Shown in pieces: positions 1,240-46,377 of a stretch of 64,000 nt of DNA. Every line of letters starts with the position of its first letter. Position 1 is the first letter of the stretch. The position numbers were made by a program, and so were the translations under genes. The stretch lies in NCBI GenBank assembly GCA_963848135.1, contig CAWKCK010000017.1, forward strand, positions 1,218,538 to 1,282,537, in the 5' to 3' direction. Under the pieces are notes generated by a model. That model was not told the DNA's origin. It did not search any database and worked only from the letters and a program-made list of their open reading frames with translations. This stretch comes from an uncultured delta proteobacterium (GTDB lineage Bacteria > Desulfobacterota > Desulfobacteria > Desulfobacterales > SG8-13).

Positions 1240-1351
1240 GAACTTGTGCCTGGTGCTATTTTCCGGCCCTATCAACCGGCGGATTTCCTGAATATATCCT
1301 GACGGTATCGTTATAATAGAGGAGAAATTAGATAGTTACGATTTTGGCAAG
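1240..1351 (+). repeat. Array junction repeat (AJR) copy 1, left/core/R segments, ending in TGGCAAG
   Basis: Aligns with 15287-15397: gaact..ctg.tgctat..cggcggatttcctgaatata.cc..cg.tatcgt..gatagtt..tggcaag. Confidence 0.8.
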
Positions 1352-1389
1352 CTGTACGACATAAAACCTATTATTTCTATTAATAATGG

Positions 1390-2325
1390 TTAGTTATAGC
1401 CCATTAAATGTATTGGTTTTTGCTCTTTGTCAAGAGTTTTTTCACCGTCACCGGTGTGGCGTTGAAGCACCTTGTTCATGGCGCTATAGTAATCACGTCG
1501 AACCTTCGGGTTGGAGACCCGACAATACCGCTGCGTGGTTTTTATGCGCGTGTGGCCGAGCAGATCCTGGATGGTAACCAGGTCGGCATCGGCGTTGAGC
1601 ATCTGCGTGGCCATCGTATGGCGAAGTTGATGGCAACAGACTCTCAGCCCTGCTTTGCTGGCATAGAGCTGCATGCGGTGCTGGATGCCGCGGGCCTTGA
1701 GCGGTTTGCCTCTAAAGCGGCCCTTTTCCACCAGGAAGAGCTTTTTGACCCGCGAGTGGGGTCTGGCTTTAAGGTAAGCAGCCAAGGCGGTGTATGCGTC
1801 CTTGCTCAGATAGACCACACGGTCTTTTAGCCCCTTGCCCTGGTAGACAAACACTTGATACCGCGGCAGGTCCAAGGCACTCAGAGTGAGATTGGTTACC
1901 TCTTCGACCCGGAGTCCGCAGCGCAGCATCAGCTTGAAGATGGCCCGGTCTCTGGGATTGTCGATGACCGCAAAGAGCGCAGAGATCTCTTCATCCCGCA
2001 GGTAGCGCGGCAGTGGCCTGGAGAGCCTTAAGGTATACCCGCGCTTGACCGGATTGCTCATTACAACCTCCTCTTCGTTGATCAGGTAATCATAAAAGCC
2101 GCGGATGCTGTCCAGGTAGCAATTGACGGTCTTGGGTTTCAAACGCTTGCTGCGCAGATAATCGATGAAGCCCAATAGTTTCTTGTGGGTGACAGCCTCC
2201 ACGGGCATATCCAGCCAGACGACAAACTGCTTCAGGGTGCTCATATAGGTTCGCAGCGTATGGGCGGAGTAATTGCGTCGCTTTAAGAACCTACGGTAGT
2301 TGATAATCGAGTTGGTAATGTCCAT
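1390..2325 (-). CDS. tyrosine recombinase (second gene of the pair)
   Basis: 311 aa with a SAM-like N-domain. Catalytic motifs are GLRVEE, HQLRHTMAT and LLGHTRIKTTQRY. Confidence 0.9.
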   Translation of the reverse strand: MDITNSIINYRRFLKRRNYSAHTLRTYMSTLKQFVVWLDMPVEAVTHKKLLGFIDYLRSKRLKPKTVNCYLDSIRGFYDYLINEEEVVMSNPVKRGYTLRLSRPLPRYLRDEEISALFAVIDNPRDRAIFKLMLRCGLRVEEVTNLTLSALDLPRYQVFVYQGKGLKDRVVYLSKDAYTALAAYLKARPHSRVKKLFLVEKGRFRGKPLKARGIQHRMQLYASKAGLRVCCHQLRHTMATQMLNADADLVTIQDLLGHTRIKTTQRYCRVSNPKVRRDYYSAMNKVLQRHTGDGEKTLDKEQKPIHLMGYN

Positions 2326-3379
2326 GGAGTTCTCCCTTTTCGACGATGGCCATGGCTTTGTAGTATTGTTCCCGGCGCGTGTTGTCGGTCAGCCGGGCAT
2401 AGCGGCGGGTCATTTCGATGCAGCTGTGCCCGAGAAGCTCCTGCAAACACTGCAGCGGCATACCGGCGTTGAGCAGCTCTGTGGCGAAGGTGTGCCGCAG
2501 GCAGTGCAGGGTGTATCCCTTGTGGGCCAGTCCGGATTTTTGCAGATAGGCGTTGAAGATTAGGCGGGCAGCCGCATAACCCAGGGCTCGCCCGCAGTTG
2601 CCGTAGAAGATGAACCCGCTTTGTCTTCTCCTGGTGTTCAGCCATTTTATTAGAGCGCTTCGGGCATCATCGCTCAAATAGACAACGCGTCCGACCCGGT
2701 TCTTTTGTGCTTCTATGATTTGTATAATATTTTCCCGCAGGTTGAGATCTTCCACTTTGGTGCCGAGCAGCTCGCCGATGCGCATCCCGGTTCGCAACAA
2801 TGTCAATACCAGGGCGCGATCACGCGGTTTTTTGACTACGGCCAACAGCTGCTTGATATGATCCGGATCAATGGCCCGCGGCAGGGCATCGGGAACTTTA
2901 ATGCGCAGTTTGCGCTTGAGCAGATCCGGGTGAAGCACATCGCGATCGATCAAAAAGTTGATAAAGGCATACAGGCAGCGCAACTGAGTGCTGACCGTAT
3001 TGGGTGAAAGCCCGCGGTCTTGCTCATGTTCAACGAATTCGGCGATGTGCTCGCGGGTGATGGCGTGCAGTTGATTGGTGCCACTGTCTTTGAGAAAAAG
3101 TAAAAAACCGGTAATGTTGCCACCGTTGGATCGGATCGTGTTGGGTCGGCAATTGCGTCGATGCTGATTGAGCAAATACGCCCTGACATGCTCTGCAGCC
3201 ATGAGATCCTGCACGGTGATTTTGCGTAGGATTCGGTCAATAAGAGGATTGAAAGTGAAGGGATTTCGATCGAAATTGGAACGGACCGAGGACGAACGAA
3301 TTGATTTGTCCTTGCCGGACCGATGCCTTTTGAGTTGATCGGTCTGGATTTCTGCGGAAACGTGTTCGAGGTTCATCAC
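2291..3379 (-). CDS. tyrosine recombinase (first gene of the pair)
   Basis: 362 aa with GMRIGEL, HCLRHTFAT and LLGHSCIEMTRRY. Its 3' end overlaps the next recombinase gene by 35 nt. Confidence 0.9.
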   Translation of the reverse strand: MMNLEHVSAEIQTDQLKRHRSGKDKSIRSSSVRSNFDRNPFTFNPLIDRILRKITVQDLMAAEHVRAYLLNQHRRNCRPNTIRSNGGNITGFLLFLKDSGTNQLHAITREHIAEFVEHEQDRGLSPNTVSTQLRCLYAFINFLIDRDVLHPDLLKRKLRIKVPDALPRAIDPDHIKQLLAVVKKPRDRALVLTLLRTGMRIGELLGTKVEDLNLRENIIQIIEAQKNRVGRVVYLSDDARSALIKWLNTRRRQSGFIFYGNCGRALGYAAARLIFNAYLQKSGLAHKGYTLHCLRHTFATELLNAGMPLQCLQELLGHSCIEMTRRYARLTDNTRREQYYKAMAIVEKGELHGHYQLDYQLP

Positions 3380-3464
3380 TGCCTCCTTTCGTTTTTAGCA
3401 GAAAAAACAGGCAGATAATGACCTCTGTAACACTTTCAGTCAATTACCTTTTTATGTCGTACAG

Positions 3465-3530
3465 TGGCAAGAAATGTTTAGTGGTGAACCACTTTGTAGT
3501 ATTGACGGGATTTTGTTTAACGTGAAATGA
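3465..3530 (+). repeat. AJR copy 1 resumed after the insertion (TGGCAAG + gtaTTGACg segment)
   Basis: tggcaag..tagtattgacggg matches the tggcaag..gagtattgacc segment of the other copies. Confidence 0.6.
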
Positions 3531-6718: not shown

Positions 6719-7556
6719 TTAGCAATATAGGTTTTCAATCCACCTCATCGCCTCTGTATCACTGATTGTTCCAAGATACCGCTGAGTGGTTGCAAGATTT
6801 GCGTGACGGAGAATGACCTTGCTCACGATTTCGATTGGCGCTCCGGATCGAGAGGCATAAGTAGCCGAATGCCGCCGCAGTTCATGGGGTCTCAAATGGA
6901 TACCGACCATCTTTCCCGCTTTTTTTACAACCAGCCTGGCCGCTGCATAAGTAATCGGGAAAATGCGATCATCTGGCCTGTTATAAGTCTTAATGGCATA
7001 GTCACGAAGCCTGGCAGCCACTTTCTGCGGGATGAACACAATCTCATGCTCTTTACCGCTTTTCGGTTCTCGCAGGATCAGCTTTCGATCCTGGATGTCA
7101 TTCACTCTGAGTTTTAACACTTCACCGATTCGCATCCCGCCACGGGCCATCAGTTCAAGCATCAAACGATTACGAATTTTGGTGGTTCGGAAAATGATTT
7201 CATCAACGGTCTCTTTTTCGATGATTTCCCATCTGGATACCACCCTTTCCCGATACAGTTTTCGGATCATAGGCGTATCGCAAGGATTGCCTATACCAGA
7301 GTCGATGTTATTGCGGAAAAAATTGAAAAAGGCGGACAGGTAGGAATAACGGACTCGCTTTGTGTAGGGCTTGTTACCATTGGTAAAGCTGTTCAGAAAG
7401 GAAAGGACATCATCCGGTGTAACCTGTTCAATCTCAGCATCACCGAACTCCCGGCAGAATCGGTCAATAACTGACCAATAGGACCGAACGGTATTTTTTT
7501 TTCGAGTGGGCCTTGTGGTAATCGATCCATATTTTTGCGGCTTCGGCCACTTTCAT
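6719..7556 (-). CDS. AJR-embedded tyrosine recombinase, copy 1; full length needs a one-base correction in an A9 tract
   Basis: ATG at 7556 with RBS gaggagg. The frame breaks in A9 (7494-7502). With 8 A's the reading is MKVAEAAKIWIDYHKAHSKKNTVRSYWSVIDRFCREFGDAEI..MARGGMRIGEV..HELRRHSATYA..ILRHANLATTQRY, about 279 aa. Confidence 0.8.
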
Positions 7557-7643: not shown

Positions 7644-7674
7644 CGCTATTTTCGATAGTTACGAGACTGGCAAG
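7628..7674 (+). repeat. AJR copy 3, right half
   Basis: gtatattcagtttcaacgctattttcgatagttacgagactggcaag matches 4671-4717. Confidence 0.85.
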
Positions 7675-11127: not shown

Positions 11128-12632
11128 TGGTTATATAACGTTGCAAAACTGATTTTTGCTTTTGAAAAACAGGCACAAAGAAATGGCAGATAGCCATTTC
11201 TCCACTTTCATCACCAGGAAGCACAGTGCAATGGCCGTCTCACTGGTAGATGCCAACTTTGTCATCAACCGGCCGATACCAAAGCGCCGTTTACCCTGGC
11301 CGAACTTGCCCTCTATCGGTATCCGATCCAGTTCATCCTGCCGTGCCTGAACGGCTTCGGCTTTAAGTCGGGCGGCATTCTCTGCGGTCACCTTCGGTGG
11401 TCTTCCCAATCTCGGGCCCGACAACCGGATGTGGTGTTTCTTGCAATAGCGAAGATTGTCTCGCGTGCGGTAGATCCGATCTGCATGCACCGACTTCGGA
11501 TAAAGCCCGAAACGCCTCTTGTAGGATTCTACCTGGCCTTTCAGGTCTAAACTTTCGTTGAAGTTGTCCCAACTGCATCGATCCACAAAATCGTAGCCTT
11601 CTACCAGGCTGACGGATAATTTGGGGCCGAATTCGGTATCGCTTCCGGCCTTGCCCCTTTTTATCGGCAACACATGCGGTAGGCTGATGCTCACGATTCG
11701 ATCGCTGATCCGACGGATGCGGTTCTCATACATCCAGCGTTGCTGACGGTAGAGCTCGCTGACCACCAATAGATCTCTATATTGTTTTCGGTTGAGAACC
11801 CTTAGCCCTGTTGACTCAGATAGCTTGTCGATGCTTGCCAGGTTGCGATGCAGATAGCCCAACTGACCCCGGAGTGCTTTACGAAGCTTTCGGCCGCCAA
11901 CTCTCCTGCTTTTGGCCACAGCAAGGTAGGCTTTTCTGGCCTTTACTCGATAGGTTCGAGGCTTCTTAAAACCTCGGCCACGGCCTTTATGCAGCACGTC
12001 TATGATCTGCTCGCTCTTCTGCCGGGCGGTGTTCAAAAGCTTAAAATCGGTCGGATAGGTGATGTCAGCCGGAACGCAAGTCGCATCGAGCACCTACTTA
12101 CCCTTGATGGATGGGCCTTGTGGCTGATCATCATCTTTTTTGATGCTCTCAGAGGCCCTGGTGACAATGACCTCATTGACATGCTTGAGAACATCGACGG
12201 AAAAGCGTTTTCGAAAATGCACCAACATGGTGGGATGAAAGGGTGACTCGGTAGTAAATTGCTGCAACCCACAAAAATACTGCAGATAGGGGTTCTCTCG
12301 GATCTGCTCCACGCACTCCTCGTCGGTCAGCCCCAGGCGCTCTTTAGTAATCAGTGCCGCCAAGGCCATGCGCACTGAAAGGGCCGGTGGTCCTTGACCG
12401 TTGCCGGTAAAATTCCGGCAGTATTTCTCTTCGAACTCGTGCCAGGGAATCACCTCTGCCAATCTGACCCAGCGATTGTCCGCTGGTAATTTACCACCGA
12501 ATGGCAGGTGAAACTCGACAAATTTCAGCTGTTTTTCATTGTGTCTGTACATAATCTCCGGCGCATTGGTGCAAGGAATTTTGGTGATATCGCTTGTTTT
12601 TCGTGCACTTTTTGCAACCGAATAAGCATAAT
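11128..12632 (-). mobile_element. IS5/IS1182-family insertion sequence (approximate ends)
   Basis: Imperfect IRs around ..ataacgttgcaaaact (about 11135-11150) and ctttttgcaaccgaat (about 12608-12625). Confidence 0.6.
11131..12552 (-). pseudogene. IS5/IS1182-family DDE transposase interrupted by one in-frame TAG
   Basis: ORFs 12094-12552 and 11131-12093 are contiguous in the same frame: ..PSIKGK*VLDATCVPADITYPTD... InsH-type N-domain plus DDE domain. Confidence 0.8.
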
Positions 12633-18381: not shown

Positions 18382-19218
18382 TTAACAATAAAGGTTTTCA
18401 ATCCAGCTCATTGCCTTTGTGTCGCTATTTGTCCTAAAATACCGCTGAGTGGTGGCCAGATTGGCGTGACGGAGAATGATTTTGCTCACTATTCCGATTG
18501 GCACTCCAGATCGAGAGGCATAGGTTGCCGAATGTCGCCGCAAGTCATGCGGTCTCAGGTGAATTCCAACCATCTTTCCCGCTTTTATTACAACCAGCCT
18601 GGCTGCTGCATAGGTATTCGGGAAAATGCTGTCATCTGGTCTATTACAAGTCTGAATGGCGTAGTCACGGAGTCTATCAGCCACCTTTTGTGGGATAAAA
18701 ACAATCTCATGTTCTTTCCCGCTCTTCGGTTCTTGAAGGATCAGTTTTCGATCCTGAATGTCATTCAACCTGAGTTTCAGCGCCTCACCAACCCTCATAC
18801 CCCACGGGCCATCAGTTCGAGCATCAGTCGATTGCGAATTTTGGTAGTCCGGAAAATGATCTCATCAAAGGTATCTTTTTCGATGATTTCCCATCTGGAT
18901 ACCACCCTTTCCCGATACAATTTTCGGATCATGGGCGTATCGCACGGATTGCCTATACCAGAGTCGATGTTATTGCGGAAAAAATTAAAAAAGGCTGAGA
19001 GGTGGGAATAGCGGACCCGTTCGGTGTACGGCTTGTTGCCGTTGGTAAAGCTATTGAGAAAGGAAAGGACATCATTCGGTGTTAATTTATCGATTTCGGC
19101 GTCGCCGAACTCCTGGCAGAATCGGTCAATAACTGACCAATGCGACCGCACGGTATTTTTTTTTCGAGTGGGCGTTGTGGTAATCTATCCATATTTTCGC
19201 GGCTTTGGACACTTTCAT
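18382..19218 (-). pseudogene. AJR-embedded tyrosine recombinase, copy 2 (same A9 tract plus an extra frameshift)
   Basis: Estimated ~85-90% DNA identity to copy 1 by eye (not computed). A9 tract at 19156-19164. A second 1-nt deletion lies at about 18797 (..LELMARGV* / MRVGEALKL..). Confidence 0.8.
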
Positions 19219-19818: not shown

Positions 19819-19915
19819 ACTCCCAATGTATTCGTATCGGCCTGGTTAATATATAAACTGTACGACAACTATGTTACCATAGTATTCCTGACCTTGATAT
19901 TTTAAAGATTATCAT
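19819..19915 (+). repeat. AJR copy 8 (compact; R segment apparently inverted)
   Basis: actcccaatgtattcgtatcgg..ctgtacgacaactatg (reverse complement resembles gatagttacgagac)..gtattcctgacc-N16-tatcat. Confidence 0.5.
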
Positions 19916-22099: not shown

Positions 22100-22206
22100 C
22101 CGAATCTATATTTTAGCGGCTTTGGTCACTTTCATAGTTTACGCCCTTTGGTTATTGATGCCTGACATTCGGGGAAATCCCGAGGTAAACAGATGATACC
22201 CAAATC
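22100..22206 (-). pseudogene. stub of a third AJR-embedded recombinase module (5' UTR plus first ~9 codons)
   Basis: ATGAAAGTGACCAAAGCCGCTAAAATATAG plus a conserved leader (gacattcggggaaatcccgaggtaaac). Homology stops near 22100. Confidence 0.7.
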
Positions 22207-26719: not shown

Positions 26720-26898
26720 ATAAACCTTAGACAGATCCAGACACTGGTTGTGGCATAGACGAAGTCAGGGATTCTGAACTCTGACTTTCTTAATATCAAC
26801 ACCAGATAATTTTGGAGTGGTCGTTTGACCGGGTAATGATCATCTGGTAAAGATACAGATGGGTGGGTCACCACTTTGTTCGGCTGTAATCTTCCCCG

Positions 26899-27047
26899 AA
26901 TATTTGGCAGGGCGATGGATTTCCTGAATATATCCATACGGTATCGCTATAATAAACAAAAATTAAGATTGTTACGAGACTGGCAAGTTAAGTTTAGTGC
27001 TCTGCTACATTGTGGCAATTGACGTAACATACCAATTAGGTTAAGGT
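26899..27047 (+). repeat. AJR copy 15
   Basis: ggcgatggatttcctgaatatatccatacggtatcgct..gattgttacgagactggcaag..tgctacattgtggcaaTTGACG. Confidence 0.85.
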
Positions 27048-27169: not shown

Positions 27170-28655
27170 GGCTACCTTATGTAACATCATAAAAGTTGCA
27201 TGTTGGAAGCTCGGTTTTTTTATTTAAAAATTCGGTTCTTCTCCCGATTAGTGGGAGAAAGCCTGGTAGATTTTTAATGTAAAGTAGCGTAAATCGTGGA
27301 ACCCATAGGCTTTACGTTTAATGACCTTTATTTTGTTATTTACCCCTTCAAGTTTACCGGTATGAATGGGGTAATCACAGTGGTTGAGGATACCGTAGAT
27401 ATATCGTTCCAGAGTTTTAGCAAAGGCGTTTACAGATGGATGATTCAAGGATCGAGCCAGTGAGCACCAGTCATCAAGTGCCTTGATCGCCCAGGTTCGT
27501 GAACGGTAAGTCCAGATATGTTTGAGCTTCTCTTTTAGGATCATGACAGTGTTGATGGTTTCGTTTAGTGCCAGAAGTTCTTTGAGATGCTGCCTTTGCT
27601 CCTGGGTCTTCAGATTTTTTCGGTTTTTCAGCAACAGATACTTGGTGCCTTTGTAAACGTTTTTATCTTCCTTGGCGGCATTGCGATATTCGCTGTTTCG
27701 TACTTTGTCGATGACGCGATTAAATTTGGCGACCACATGGAACAGATCGAACACGATTTTAGCGTGAGGCACTTTTTTTTAACGGCTTTGATGAACGGCT
27801 TCCACATGTCCATCACAACCGCCTCGATGCCGGCGAGTTGCTTCCGGCTGAGCTGATTGAAAAAGCGTTTGAGCGTGTCGGCCTGGCGATGTTTTCCGAC
27901 ATAGACCACCCGGCCGCTCAGATAATCCAGGACCACCGTCAGGTAGCGATGGCCCTTGCGCACGGAGATCTCGTCTACCGCCAAAATACGCAGGCCGTTT
28001 AAATCGGGCTGCCCGTAGTCGTGCTCCAAGTAATATTTGTCGATGTTCTTGACCGTTTTCCAATTCAACCCCAGGTGCCGAGCGACCTCGGAGACGGTCA
28101 TAAATCGGCATAATTGATATACGTAACGCGCCATCCGTTGGGTGACTCTCAAATAGGGATGAAAGAGCTCCAGATCCTCGATATGAATGCCATGGCAGTG
28201 AGCGCAGAACACTTTGCGGTAGCGACAAGCCAGCCAGACCCGGGCGGTGGCCATGTTCAGGTCCCGCACCTTGCGCTGGGTCCAGCTGTGAACGCCAGTG
28301 GCCCTGCGGCCGCAGCCGTGGCAGACTGGTGCATAGCGTCCGTCGGGCTGCATCTGGATGTGTGCAGTGCCGGCATCGGCTGTAACACTCTGATTGGTAA
28401 TTTTGATTCGACCAAAAGGGAAATAAGGTGCTATGGTGGGAACGGACATCGCAGGCCTCCTTTGGATATGTTTTTTCTTGGGCGAAAAAACCAATACCCA
28501 TAAGAGATACCGGATGTCCATTCTGTTTTAATCTATTACACACTTTTTTTGCCCTGCTTCACTACAACTAATTCGGATATGATCCAAAAATTCCACACTG
28601 ATTTAAAATTGAATTTAAAGGTATGTCTCGCTTTGAGAGCCATAATATCGTTCCT
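27170..28655 (-). mobile_element. ISL3-family insertion sequence (ends approximate)
   Basis: The right end reads GGCTCTCAAAGCGAGAC in reverse complement at 28655. The left IR is not convincingly resolved. Confidence 0.45.
27248..28449 (-). pseudogene. ISL3-family transposase, frameshifted in an A8/T8 run (27773-27780)
   Basis: MSVPTIAPYFPFGRIKI..zinc-finger CHGCG..CAHC..DMWKPFIKAVKKK | VPHAKIVFDLFHVVAKF... Confidence 0.8.
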
Positions 28656-30883: not shown

Positions 30884-30957
30884 GGGGATGTAGCTCAGTT
30901 GGGAGAGCGGGACGTTTTACGTCTATGTCGGGGGTTCAAGTCCTCCCATCTCCACCA
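30884..30957 (+). tRNA. Ala-type tRNA-like gene with a non-canonical anticodon arm (pseudo-tRNA?)
   Basis: GGGGATG/CATCTCC acceptor with G3:U70. AGCTCAGTTGGGAGAGC D-arm, GGGGG-TTCAAGT-CCTCC T-arm, encoded CCA. The anticodon arm GGACG-TTTTA-CGTCT has a 5-nt loop, giving 74 nt in total. Confidence 0.6.
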
Positions 30958-31130: not shown

Positions 31131-32471
31131 CGCGGGTTGGATACCGCAAGACTTGTATTCGTCGCGGAGCTGCCTCTCTCTATTAGCGGGAGTTTTAAAT
31201 TCCCATAGCAGGAACGAGGATTCTCCTTTCCGTAGTCACACCTCTTCAGGGAAGCGGGAAAAAAGTATCTTATGCAATGGTCAGTTGCATTTGTTTATCG
31301 ATGGCCCACATAAAAGCACCTAATTCACGAGCAATGGCGGTCACTGTGGCCTGTCTGGATTTTCCCCTGGCAATAAGTCGCCGGTAACGGGCGCATAAGC
31401 GTGTTTGGGCTTTCCAGGATATATCGCACACGCTTTTGGGTAATCCCTGCTGACGTTTAAGAAGTATTATAGATTTTCGTGCTGGCATTTTATAGGTCCA
31501 GGCCGCTTCGACCAAAACCCGTCGCACATGACTGTTGCCCGTTTTGGTAATCGAGCCCCGGCGGACCTTTTTACCACTGGAATGCTCTGAAGGGATGAGT
31601 CCCAGATAGGCCATTAGCTGCTTGGGGTTCGGGAAACGGTTCATATCTCCAATCTCGGCCACAACGGTGGCCGAAACAATTAACGATACGCCTCGCAGGG
31701 CTTGATAGGCTTTAACAAATGGTGCCCGGCTCCACTGTTCAACATGCGCTTGTATTTGTTGGGTGACTCGTTTAACTCTTTGGCTACATTCATTTACCGT
31801 ATCAATATACTCCTGAAGAGCAATTTGTTGAGCTGGATGGGGAAACTTGATTTGTTGCCAGCCAATTATAAAAACCCTTGGTCCAGTGTCTCTTACCGCT
31901 GTATTGGTAGCCATGCCGCAGCAGAAAGGCTAACAATCGTTGGCGGGCTTTTCTCTCTAAGCGTCTGATGTCATCCCTGCAACGGATGAGGTCTCTGATG
32001 GCTTCATCTTCAATGGTCGGCACATTAATGCTGGTCAACTCTCCAGCGCGAAACAACCTGACCAGGTTGATGGCATCACGACGGTCGGTTTTGATCCGGT
32101 CACCACTTCGCCTCGGGATCATGGAGGGGGCAACCACAGAGCAGCTTATGTTTTTGGAAACAAGGTGCCGGTAAATCTGGTAACCACATGGTCCGGCTTC
32201 GTAAACAAATCGAAGCTCGACATTGGTACCTTTTAACTTCTCAATTAGCTTGTCCAGTGCATCGAGAGTGCTGTTAATTTTACCGTAGGATCTCACCTTA
32301 CCATTTGACCGGCTGTTTGTTATTGCTGCATCAATGGTATTTTTGTGGACATCCATACCAACATATAATATTTTCTTTTTCATGGTCTGCCTCCTTGGTT
32401 ATGGCTCTGAGCCGTTATGACCTAATTAGGTCGCACAGCTTAACCCACGCCGCAAGGGGCAGACCATACTC
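31131..32471 (-). mobile_element. IS110-family element a (bounds inferred from the empty-site paralogue at 44075/44076)
   Basis: Homology between the two duplicated segments breaks at 31130 and resumes at about 32472. Confidence 0.6.
31270..32383 (-). pseudogene. IS110-family transposase, frameshifted near 31860
   Basis: N-terminal DEDD part MKKKILYVGMDVHKNT.. (31802-32383). C-terminal part ..QQIKFPHPAQQIALQEY..TKTGNSHVRR.. is in another frame. Confidence 0.85.
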
Positions 32472-34217: not shown

Positions 34218-35237
34218 CTAGTGCGCAATAAGCTCCTCCCGAAAGGGGACTTGATCTCTCATGATATAGTAGCAGATGCGGGCCAGTTTGTTACCCAGCG
34301 CTTTGGTCGCAAGGCTTGTATTGGCCTGAGCGGCCTTGCGGTTATAGTATCGTCTGAACGGTTCATTATACCGACGGCCCAATTGAGCGGCTTCAGTGAG
34401 CGCCCAACTCAGGTAGCGATTGCCATTTTTACGGTTACCGTGCCCTTTGCTTTTACCGTCGGATAACCGCTTCGATGGTACACACCGACAGTAGGAAGCA
34501 AAATTACCGACCTTTGGAAAACGCTTGATGTCACCCACTCCCAACATGATAGTCATTGCCAGGATGTTACCGATACCGGGTATTGTCAGCAATTGCCCGA
34601 ACTCTTTTTTGAGTTTGACTCTCTGTATGATCGCTTTCTCTAAACGTTTAATCTTCTCCTTCAGAAAGTTGATTGTATCCAAACTGGTTTGGGCCGAGAT
34701 AACCAAATACTCTTCTTTTAACCACTCTTGTAATGCTTCGACGGTCAGATTGCGAATATCACCTGTACTTATTTTTACGCAACAACACCGTTGAATGAAA
34801 GATTGCAGGCTCAAAATATTGGCGGTCTTGTGCCGGACTAAAAACATCCGTTTGCGAGCCAGGTCACGCACCGGACGATGGTCCTTTGGGTAAATGTAAC
34901 CTTCGGGCAAAATGCCGAGTATGAGAAGTTTGGCCAGAAAGAAAGCGTCGTGCTGATCGTCACTGTACTTTAGACCTTCATATTGCTTGATGGCCGACGG
35001 GTTGGCCAGGTGCGCAATGCCATATCCGGCACCCATGAGGCCATCGACGAGCCAGTACCAGTTGTAGGTGGACTCAACAACAAATCCCTTTAGTCGTTTT
35101 TTGAAGGGCTTTAAAGTATGAAGAATTTGGTCAAGATCATTGGATACACGTTTTTTGAAGACACGGTTAAATGCATCGTCCATGATTCCGATGTAGGTAT
35201 TTCTTGAATGAAGATCCAAACCGGCATACAGTTCCAT
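34218..35237 (-). CDS. IS110-family transposase (element b), intact ORF
   Basis: 339 aa. MELYAGLDLHSRNTY.. DEDD N-domain, ..LLTIPGIGNILAMTIM.. and ..KSKGHGNRKNGNRYL.. C-domain. Confidence 0.9.
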   Translation of the reverse strand: MELYAGLDLHSRNTYIGIMDDAFNRVFKKRVSNDLDQILHTLKPFKKRLKGFVVESTYNWYWLVDGLMGAGYGIAHLANPSAIKQYEGLKYSDDQHDAFFLAKLLILGILPEGYIYPKDHRPVRDLARKRMFLVRHKTANILSLQSFIQRCCCVKISTGDIRNLTVEALQEWLKEEYLVISAQTSLDTINFLKEKIKRLEKAIIQRVKLKKEFGQLLTIPGIGNILAMTIMLGVGDIKRFPKVGNFASYCRCVPSKRLSDGKSKGHGNRKNGNRYLSWALTEAAQLGRRYNEPFRRYYNRKAAQANTSLATKALGNKLARICYYIMRDQVPFREELIAH

Positions 35238-35383: not shown

Positions 35384-36106
35384 GTGCGCCACGAGGGCGT
35401 AAGATGCCAGCGGGTGCAAGTCCCGTCCGGGAAATTATCGGTTCATCCCGGTAGCTACCCAGACAGTGGGACAGGGAGACCTTCCTGCTGAAGCTCTGGG
35501 GAAAGATGTAAGCCGCAAGGGCTGCAGCGACCTGGCAGGCCGTAACGCGCGTGAACCCTGAGAAGGCCTCGAAAGTACAGTTGTGGATGCCGACCCGCCC
35601 AATATTCGGGGAAGGCCGCAGCGGGATGGGTACGTAACCGATCCACCTATTCCGGTCCACCGGGGTAATGGGGACAGCATGTCAGGAAGGTATCTTGGGT
35701 AACGTGGGAGACCCGTCCCGGACGCGGGGTCGCGACCCGCAACAGCGTGTTTGACGTTGGTTCGGGCGGGACTCGGAGAGGGCCATAGTACCGTTGAAAC
35801 CGGGTAATGCCGGTGGAGGGAAGGGCCCTTACTTCTGGCGTGCTTTCGAAGGAAACGAGATGCGGTGATTGGCCTTCGGGTCTACTAAACACCTGATATT
35901 CGGACTTTCCAGAGAAAGCTTTACCGCAGGGCGAAGGTGCAATGGCATTTGATGCACTTGCGAGGTATCCAATGAGAAATGCCTCCCGCCGTGTGCCTTA
36001 CGGTGAGGCCAGTCGGAAAGCCGGATGCGGGAGATCCGCATGTCCGGTTTGATGAGCGGGGATGGGAAACGGGGCTTCATGCTACCGCGCCCATCCTCGA
36101 CTCTAC
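35384..36106 (+). mobile_element. ORF-less group II intron-like RNA (~723 nt)
   Basis: 5' GTGCG. Domain V AGCCGGATGCGG-GAGA-TCCGCATGTCCGGTT at 36019-36049 has the AGC triad, a 2-nt bulge and a GNRA loop. A domain VI-like helix follows, ending ..CTCTAC. No RT ORF is present. Confidence 0.7.
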
Positions 36107-45327: not shown

Positions 45328-46377
45328 CTCGTCAGAAACACGGCGCGGAAAAGGAAATCGATCGGGATCGACTTCCGGATCGTTCTACTCCCCGCGCCTT
45401 CCCACACCGCTTCGTTAAGGATAGCAGTATGCGATGTAGTGGCTCTTGCGGGTTTCGTCCCCGGATACAGCGGCGGGTCCGTGCCGGATTTTCACCGGCT
45501 TCCCTAAATGGCCTTCTTAAAGGCCGCCAACAACGGTATTTTAATTATCGAGCGCTTTATCTATATTTCGGGAAAAGACATGTCAAGAGTAAACTATTGT
45601 TGTTTCGGGTCACCGCCCGCTGTGAAAGCGGTGGCGTGTTTACTTTACTGCTGAGGAAATAAAACACCGGTTTCATAGCTTTCGATGGAATAGCTGTAAC
45701 TTTGTGTGCCGAGCTTGACGATTTCCCGATACACGAGCAGCTTTCGCGGCAGTGTCCATCCGCTCTGGGCGCCGTCAATATTTGCCGTTTGAATTTGGTA
45801 ATACAGGCTGTAATTGTTGGTGTCTTGAACTCGATAGATGCAGCGGTTGTTGGCGGGCACCCACACCGCACCGTTTTCTTTGGCTTTGTATATGCCCTGG
45901 GTACAATGCGGATAATCGCGCCTGAATATTTATCTCCTGACTGGCTTCGGCTAGTAAACAAAAACCATACCAACCGGGGCAGACGATGAATAAAATTACA
46001 AATTAATAATTATTCTAAATTCTTAAAGGCATATCATCCATGGCGAGACTATTGACAAGGCGGGTAAATAAACCAAATCATTTTACCATTTTGGTATGGT
46101 AGAGAACAAAAGTAAAATCATTCCTGTTATATAGAAGAAATCGTATCAAATTGGTGCGGTACAGTTAAAAAGTCCCCAAAACCACAGCGAAACCGGCCGG
46201 ATACCTGACAGTTACTCGTCGATAGGCGCTCTCGATTGGGTACGTCCATCGACATTTCGTGGGTTGTCATGATTTTATTTCAGAATGGAAAACCTGGCCC
46301 TCGGGGCCAGTCGAAGATCCCACCATCGGGGGTCAGAAATAATCGGCTATGCCTCAGAGCAACACTGTTTATTGGTT

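Follow-up and report, generated by a model that had tools for sequence, protein, structure and literature searches.

Within a 64,000-nucleotide stretch of DNA from an uncultured Desulfobacterota bacterium (contig CAWKCK010000017.1; the whole stretch is referred to below as the window), the 2113-bp segment at positions 1352-3464 is probably a mobile, core-specific element driven by its own recombinases. It is best read as an autonomous, insertion-sequence-like integrative element whose sole genes encode a paralogous pair of Xer-type tyrosine recombinases, RecA (361 aa) and RecB (311 aa). The segment is bounded by perfect 15-bp terminal inverted repeats, CTGTACGACATAAAA, at 1352-1366 on the plus strand (RecB-proximal) and 3450-3464 on the minus strand (RecA-proximal), which match at 15 of 15 positions and have no further copy in the window at three or fewer mismatches. 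The heptamer TGGCAAG abuts both ends in direct orientation (1345-1351 and 3465-3471, plus strand), and the G+C content of 52.3% compares with 40-41% in the flanks. Outside the heptamers lie the two halves of an interrupted array (junction) repeat of direct-repeat family D5, the left half (GGATTTCCTGAATATATCC...GATAGTTACGATTT) at 1281-1344 and the right half (AAATGTTTAGTG...GTATTGAC) at 3472-3506, both on the plus strand. When positions 1241-1351 are joined in silico to 3472-3530, the product aligns without a break across the core with other copies of the repeat, such as that at 26877-27045. An initial annotation of this DNA had described the 2113-bp segment, its perfect repeats and outer heptamers and two overlapping tyrosine-recombinase genes (362 and 311 aa, 35-nt overlap), and had proposed that deleting the segment restores a normal repeat copy. 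All of its coordinates and sequences are correct, both genes are intact and match Phage_integrase, and the alignment of the joined flanks through the core bears out the restored copy.

Relatives of the element are numerous. A protein search with RecA listed at least 120 homologue clusters, 59-99% identical and nearly all of 354-383 aa, and many of these lie on contigs of just 2.0-2.5 kb, as expected if a multicopy repeat breaks the assemblies. The closest relatives, six metagenome loci (L001-L006; RecA 80-88% identical), have the same gene pair with the same 35-nt overlap amid differing neighbor genes. A scan of species-representative genomes (one per species) returned 306 stretches encoding relatives, from which 79 loci were kept, mostly in metagenome-assembled genomes of Desulfobacterota; several genomes hold three or four copies. 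Complete genomes are among the carriers, CP070769.1 and CP070768.1 for example. The gene pair, the overlap, and the terminal repeat are conserved throughout the six metagenome and 79 genome loci. Complete elements were called with a script, as the conserved end CTGTACG and its complement at a spacing of 1.9-2.7 kb; its strict form yielded 38, and with a relaxed form there were at least 46 in all. These share the terminal repeat CTGTACG(AC/TA)A(T/C)AAA and measure 2.04-2.41 kb, from which it follows that none carries cargo.

The boundaries seen in the window are those of the family as a whole. Two copies in one genome (L008 and L009) are 99.6% identical and two in another (L047 and L049) 100% identical, in each case over exactly the element length and with different flanks, and the 100% identical copies L003 and L004, from two samples, have differing left flanks and right flanks that are 95.6% identical over 205 nt. 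When the 200-nt flanks were compared all-against-all, similarity appeared in eight pairs only. Because homology between copies stops at the inverted repeats, the recombinase pair is not part of a larger conserved element with ends elsewhere, a possibility that the initial annotation had kept in view. In a plasmid collection we found no relative above 30% identity; the best plasmid-borne relatives, below that value, include a partial cluster of adjacent recombinase genes that is possibly of the recombinase-in-trio (RIT) type. No insertion-sequence or transposon model in Pfam or NCBIfam names the family, and in the literature on paired or tandem tyrosine recombinases, on tyrosine transposons, and on the terminal-repeat sequence we found no description of it, an absence that is no proof of its being undescribed. 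The family is widespread and apparently undescribed.

The heptamer behaves as the address of the element. The left and right 7-mers agree in 46 of the roughly 49 complete elements and differ in three, and 15 different 7-mers are in use across the family. The commonest, CTTGCCA (TGGCAAG on the other strand), accounts for 21 complete elements in several diverged clades, and CTCCAAC, GCTGTCA, ATCCGAC, and others occur in clades of their own. The same 7-mer recurs at independent insertions with different outer flanks: in L001-L006, CTTGCCA stands directly outside every end present, and the sequences beyond it differ, several being the same kind of array repeat as in the window. Unoccupied sites carry one copy. 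This is so at the other array repeats in the window, at position 3076 of L002, and in L094, where the right flank of L003 and L004 abuts a single CTTGCCA and no element is present; in L094 and in the window copies at 7668 and 19330 the same junction between the repeat and a third recombinase gene, intC (see below), is likewise unoccupied, with a single CTTGCCA. Close relatives can differ in the heptamer, as do L016 (CTTGCCA) and L024 (CTGCCCT) at 89% nucleotide identity and L010 (TGTCATA) and L014 (TGCCATA) at 92%, so that it is unlikely to be read by protein.

Around the core, the target consensus from 34 insertions is symmetric, GATWN-N7-NWATC, with G at -5 in 22, A at -4 in 19 and T at -3 in 27 on the left and A at +3 in 26, T at +4 in 21 and C at +5 in 23 on the right. 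The insertion in the window (CATTT-core-AAATC) fits it better than do most other array repeats. These target arms (GATWN) and the element arms (..GTACAG and CTGTAC.. on either side of the core) are two distinct symmetric motifs. The shared target consensus also explains why the outer flanks, otherwise unrelated, look palindromic; we had entertained them as part of a larger element and rejected this, mismatched left and right pairs being nearly as complementary as true pairs. An origin of the 7-mers in tRNA anticodon loops was dropped on inspection, most of them misfitting the loop pattern. The initial annotation had proposed a site-specific element for which TGGCAAG serves as core and which for this reason targets the array repeats, and had suggested tabulating the flanks of related inverted-repeat and recombinase pairs. 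That tabulation supports the proposal for the window element and for its relatives with the same core, and it shows the proposal to be too narrow for the family, which also uses 14 other 7-mers and has the more general arm consensus.

Both proteins are tyrosine recombinases by sequence. The recA reading frame (2291-3379, minus strand) gives 362 aa from a GTG; we prefer an ATG that follows a GGAGG by five bases, at 3376. The resulting 361 aa equal nearly all homologues in length, and recA then spans 2291-3376, its 35-nt overlap with recB (1390-2325, minus strand) falling at the 5' end of the latter. Each protein joins a Phage_integrase domain (PF00589; E = 8e-36 in RecA and 1e-35 in RecB) to an N-terminal SAM-like core-binding domain, the two are 32% identical to each other, and the closest solved structures are archaeal XerA and bacterial XerD. 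Of 36 family members, at least 95% retain the catalytic sets R199, K225, H291, R294, H317, and Y326 of RecA and R139, K164, H232, R235, H258, and Y267 of RecB. RecA has an additional, poorly conserved N-terminal tail of ∼45-70 aa, the first ∼45 residues of which match no domain, followed by a single SAM-like domain at residues ∼73-147. Neither protein reaches the equivalog cut-offs of NCBIfam XerC (RecB 202 and RecA 156 against 335) or XerD (172 and 137 against 330), or the cut-off of the integron integrase model TIGR02249 (111 and 74 against 265).

The ends of the element are not equivalent. The subterminal motif CCTATTATTTCT (family consensus CCTGTTTTTTCT, from a both-end alignment of 33-38 elements) lies at 1367-1378 on the plus strand, inverted with respect to a second copy at 3400-3411, and its distance from the end is ∼15 nt on the RecB side and ∼50 nt on the RecA side, which makes the ends asymmetric. 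The RecA-side copy is part of a hairpin, CTGCCT...AGGCAG (3379-3414, minus strand), in the 5'-untranslated region of recA, recovered as a consensus fold of 21 family sequences; one pair is G-C in 11 and A-U in 9 of these, a compensatory change, and the hairpin covers part of the recA Shine-Dalgarno sequence. Between it and the terminal repeat lies a promoter-like TTGACT-17-CATTAT (3415-3443, minus strand), both hexamers of which are conserved in the family. In an outer helix of the same leader, the -10 region pairs with the start codon. At the other end, within the 3' part of recB and ∼80 nt from the RecB-proximal end, CTTGACAA (in gene orientation; ∼1430-1437 on the plus strand) is nearly invariant as DNA among relatives, codon third positions included, while the adjoining C-terminal coding sequence is variable; it could be the -35 box of an outward promoter or a protein-binding site.

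The sites of tyrosine recombinases such as Cre, Flp, lambda Int, and XerCD consist of a 6-8-bp overlap between two inverted arms, which bind the enzyme; cleavage takes place at the overlap edges, and the overlaps of the partners have to match. By analogy, recombination between the flanking 7-bp copies, the proposed overlap or crossover regions, would release a circle with a lox-like 15-7-15 site, TTTTATGTCGTACAG-TGGCAAG-CTGTACGACATAAAA, and leave the chromosome with a single TGGCAAG in a restored target, GATAGTTACGATTT-TGGCAAG-AAATGTTTAGTGG. The circle would re-integrate by the reverse reaction wherever the same 7 bp lies between loosely symmetric arms (GATWN-N7-NWATC), after which the 7-mer would again stand on both sides. 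Specificity for the heptamer would then come from overlap matching during strand exchange and not from protein recognition, and a change of the carried 7-mer would retarget the lineage. Matching overlaps would produce identical flanks, lineage-specific 7-mers, retargeting with little change in the proteins, and an occasional mismatch of 1-2 bases. Such mismatches occur in L063 (CTACTCT/CTGCTCT) and L078 (CATCCCT/CATACTT), whose left and right 7-mers differ at 1-2 positions, as expected if strand exchange takes place inside the 7-bp segment. The element would have landed in the array repeat because the repeat carries CTTGCCA/TGGCAAG as its own boundary sequence. Since each integrated junction combines one element arm with one target arm, a heterodimer like XerC/XerD at each junction is attractive, and we tentatively guess, with the odds somewhat against us, that each recombinase binds one kind of arm, so that the junctions resemble a XerC/XerD-dif site.

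Several points weigh against this scheme. Fetched loci contained no excised circle, tandem junction, or circular overlap, and the predicted circle junction, searched for as RTKWCGTACAG-N7-CTGTACGWMAY in metagenome contigs, gave four matches, none with the extended repeat or with recombinase genes, which we judge to be chance occurrences. No orthologous empty site was found for the exact window locus, exact look-ups of RecA, RecB, the neighboring DUF1269 protein, and P0121 being empty. Why two different recombinases should be needed does not follow from the perfect symmetry of the element arms, the activity of RecA and RecB is a prediction, and in L050 the two sides carry unrelated 7-mers, CTTGCCA and CTCCTAT. 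This last case fits recombination between two elements, and also the flank carry-over of Tn554 or of SEs (strand-biased circularizing integrative elements); for L050, L063, and L078 together, integration into imperfectly matching cores and recombination between two elements are both possible sources of the differing 7-mers.

The repeats in which the element sits form a system of their own. The window contains 16 copies of TGGCAAG where 9.1 are expected, 11 of them on the plus strand between 1.3 and 29.3 kb, and most of these 11 are at the same position of a composite repeat of ∼110-200 bp. About 13 copies of this repeat (..CTGCTATGACC..GAGATAGCC..GATAGTTACG..TGGCAAG..GTATTGAC), all in the same orientation, separate genes whose G+C fraction is very uneven (0.35-0.54) in an array at 1281-30300 that ends ∼590 bp before a tRNA-Lys gene (30884-30957). 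The array looks like a tandem accretion of TGGCAAG-bounded units rather than an integron. Folded as single-stranded DNA, four repeat copies (two of them on both strands, six folds in all) gave z-scores of -0.4 to +0.7 against shuffled sequences; since they do not fold as single strands, the repeats are not integron attC sites, and the integron reading was discarded on this ground and because the window lacks an integron integrase and the repeats match no Rfam family.

A third small tyrosine recombinase, IntC (∼278 aa when intact, 20-24% identical to RecA and RecB), is encoded inside the array repeat, its gene starting ∼130 nt from CTTGCCA at two array repeats. The window holds a near-intact copy (6719-7530), a degraded copy (18382-19190), and a 5' stub (22104-22200), all on the minus strand, and IntC is also encoded in L003 (7145-7982), L092, and L094; fragments lie near two-recombinase elements in L003, L016, L033, and L063. 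The IntC family has over 4700 matches at E ≤ 1e-30, many on contigs of 1.0-1.4 kb, which suggests that it is probably a multicopy element of ∼1.2 kb in its own right. The array repeat looks like the two ends of an IntC-type element without its gene, and it seems to represent the end of elements of a second family, which share the core and encode one recombinase each. A run of nine A (TCG-A9-TAC) interrupts the intC frame in the window (∼7455-7465 and ∼19150-19160, minus strand) and in L003 (∼7198-7206); the frame is open in L094 (A8) and L092 (TC-A9), and the run is either a slippery on/off switch or a homopolymer assembly error.

The initial annotation had also likened the element end to the R segment of the array repeat. 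For the window copy the likeness amounts to 6 of 12 ungapped positions, whereas it is convincing for relatives reading CTGTACGTAAC against GTCT-CGTAAC, both of which start at the core. The related string that it placed in a repeat copy, CTGTACGACA at 19858-19867, is present there in a degenerate repeat-like stretch, perhaps as a variant form of the GTTACGAGAC segment; with ∼0.12 matches to a 10-mer expected in 64 kb on both strands and no TGGCAAG beside it, it is possibly a chance match. In other genomes, solo sites that combine the resident 7-mer with consensus GATWN/NWATC arms occur near elements 6-7 times, against 0.8 with shuffled 7-mers. Unoccupied sites of this kind lie in L014 (8129, plus strand, and 694, minus strand), L008 (1599), L032 (821), L044 (2601, minus strand), and L009 (1570). 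Some share longer repeat sequence with the element flanks, which suggests that those genomes hold repeat arrays too. The two-recombinase family and the array repeats are thus linked beyond the window, either because the elements parasitize the repeats or because both belong to one system. On the strength of a shared end architecture (a 7-bp core followed by ...CGTAAC-like arms) and a shared core repertoire (CTTGCCA, GCTGTC-), the two-recombinase elements, the IntC elements, and the array repeats might even make up one recombination network of the Desulfobacterota, although we think this unlikely. If so, tandem cargo-bearing arrays (that of the window spans 30 kb) would be assembled and rearranged at the cores, in a double-stranded, core-coded counterpart of the integron in which a 7-base change re-addresses an element.

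Other mobile DNA lies in and beyond the array. Within it are an IS5-like DDE transposase gene pair (DDE_Tnp_1_2 and DUF772; 11131-12552, minus strand) and a split ISL3-family DDE transposase gene (27248-28521, minus strand). Past it are two IS110-family transposase genes on the minus strand, one split (31270-32383; 214 and 193 aa) and one intact (34218-35237; 339 aa), and Rfam matches to group II intron RNA domains (D1-D4 and the catalytic domain; 35417-35675 and 36016-36106, plus strand). A cobalamin riboswitch (Rfam, 67.9 bits) is found at 45343-45546, minus strand, in a part of the window with higher G+C.

Given this setting, the recombinase pair might instead be the working integrase of the cassette array, in the manner of an integron integrase, moving gene cassettes via the repeats at TGGCAAG. 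Every array repeat in the window bears the element's core, and solo sites with each genome's own 7-mer lie a few kb from elements in L008, L014 (two), L032, L044, and L002, some with extended repeat sequence in common with the element flanks. Perfect inverted repeats of its own and a foreign G+C (52% against 40%) nevertheless set the element apart, it is multicopy and near-identical at unrelated sites, with most flanks in other genomes mutually unrelated, and the array has a candidate recombinase of its own, IntC, right at the repeats. We give an array integrase only a small chance, noting that this role and that of a selfish element are not mutually exclusive. Still less probable is copy-out of the Tn554/SE kind, in which the circle takes 6-7 bp of one flank and deposits it as a footprint, so that no overlap matching is needed. 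Like SEs and Tn554 (PMC10214605), our element has a pair of tyrosine recombinases, short inverted repeats, and, where the ends are joined, a short spacer; the differing 7-mers of L050 and near-matches of L063 and L078 would be accommodated as well. The two sides normally differ in SEs and Tn554, whereas here they are identical in 46 of about 49 cases and the same 7-mer recurs at independent sites; no counterpart of tnpC/srap or tfp lies inside the element, and both its proteins are of ordinary size, where SEs and Tn554 pair one ordinary with one large recombinase (PMC10214605).

Asymmetric 7-mers in direct orientation would lead a tyrosine recombinase to deletion or integration, not inversion. 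For this reason, and because the unit is multicopy in unrelated contexts with varied flanks and has no outward-facing regulated gene conserved beside it, we consider it extremely unlikely that the segment is an invertible (phase-variation) unit flipped by its own recombinases between the 15-bp inverted repeats, an alternative offered in the initial annotation, despite the position of the recombinase genes between such repeats and weak matches to NCBIfam tyrosine-type DNA invertase models far under cut-off. It is just as hard to credit that the 7-bp repeats are ordinary target-site duplications, or belong to the element, and that the pair is a fragment of a larger island. With its 7-bp direct repeat beyond the inverted repeats, the segment does have the classic look of a DDE transposon, yet no DDE or HUH gene lies inside the element, the same 7-mer is found at independent sites (21 cases of CTTGCCA) and singly at unoccupied ones, and similarity between copies ends exactly at the inverted repeats.

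If the reading as a core-specific integrative element is right, this would be the smallest kind of autonomous bacterial tyrosine-recombinase transposon described, with two recombinases in 2.1 kb and no cargo. The family follows unusually clean rules, with arms that are short and perfect, an address of 7 bp, and symmetry in the target. Near-identical enzymes with different 7-bp cores form a natural series that makes testable how much of the target choice of tyrosine recombinases resides in the overlap sequence and how much in the protein, and a compact two-protein system with a simple 37-bp site might be re-addressed via a 7-base edit. The surrounding array probably arose by tandem accretion of a related element family.

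A 2023 review tabulates five groups of prokaryotic tyrosine-recombinase transposons, ICE/IME, SE, GInt, RIT, and Tn554 (PMC10214605). The closest described architecture is that of Helicobacter TnPZ (ICEHptfs) and its recombinase XerT, in which 7-bp AAGAATG direct repeats stand at both ends and once at empty sites, next to 13-14-bp terminal repeats (PMC2731543). Our element likewise has Xer-type recombinases, short terminal inverted repeats, and a fixed heptamer that is directly repeated at its ends, single at empty sites, and present at many insertion sites (PMC2731543; PMC4234485). TnPZ, at 40-55 kb, is conjugative, carries type IV secretion cargo, and has a single xerT and one heptamer, whereas the element here is 2.1 kb long and cargo-free, encodes two paralogous recombinases, and belongs to a family with at least 15 heptamers and a symmetric target-arm consensus. 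The analogy to Tn554 and RIT elements drawn in the initial annotation is looser, and fails on gene content. Tn554 also has adjacent genes for two tyrosine recombinases, inserts site-specifically, and has a 6-7-bp junction sequence; it needs a third protein, TnpC, pairs an ordinary with a large recombinase, has imperfect repeats as its ends and flanking 6 bp that are carried over and not identical, and carries resistance genes (PMC10214605). Here only two open reading frames (361 and 311 aa) lie between the inverted repeats, no third is conserved, and the flanking 7 bp are the same on both sides in all but three cases. SEs resemble the element in their intA/intB tyrosine recombinases, 13-19-bp imperfect inverted repeats, and short circle spacer, and differ in having four core genes (intA, tfp, intB, and srap), for which 2.04-2.41 kb leaves no room, a 6-bp spacer, and a size of 6-7 kb or more; they form no empty site, leave a footprint, and belong to Gammaproteobacteria, unlike our Desulfobacterota family with its two genes, 7-bp spacer, and identical flanks. 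RIT elements, too, consist only of genes for simple Xer-like tyrosine recombinases with short overlaps between terminal inverted repeats, but have three (ritA, ritB, and ritC) in ∼3.5 kb, two consecutive core-binding domains in RitA (PMC8138268), and no known defined flanking core. RecA has one SAM-like domain, and a third recombinase gene, seen beside L003, is external to the inverted repeats and missing in most copies.

Among site-specific systems, XerC/XerD-dif and IMEX also use two paralogous Xer-type recombinases on two arms around a short central region, and the integrated junctions of our element, one element arm plus one target arm, resemble the XerC and XerD half-sites of dif; RecA and RecB are element-encoded and far below the XerC/XerD cut-offs, the spacer is 7 and not 6 bp, and the arms of the element site are identical. 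The predicted circle site, with 15-bp inverted arms and an asymmetric 7-bp spacer, recalls loxP and FRT, where a spacer change alters partner choice; Cre and Flp act as single recombinases and are not transposable, and the element's target arms differ from its own. Cryptons, which are eukaryotic mobile elements, have a tyrosine recombinase as sole enzyme, one per element, and generally lack terminal inverted repeats; they are proposed to integrate by recombination of a short sequence in a circle with the same sequence in the target, giving short direct repeats. The present element shares with them its reliance on this one type of enzyme, and differs in being bacterial, in its two recombinases, and in its inverted repeats. 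The BIM (bipartite module) elements of Cupriavidus, with one recombinase and a non-recombinase protein, were set aside as different, and a DDE insertion sequence would not fit an element that has no DDE domain and a 7-mer that is lineage-specific rather than arbitrary. The element is a minimal form within the known kinds of tyrosine-recombinase elements.

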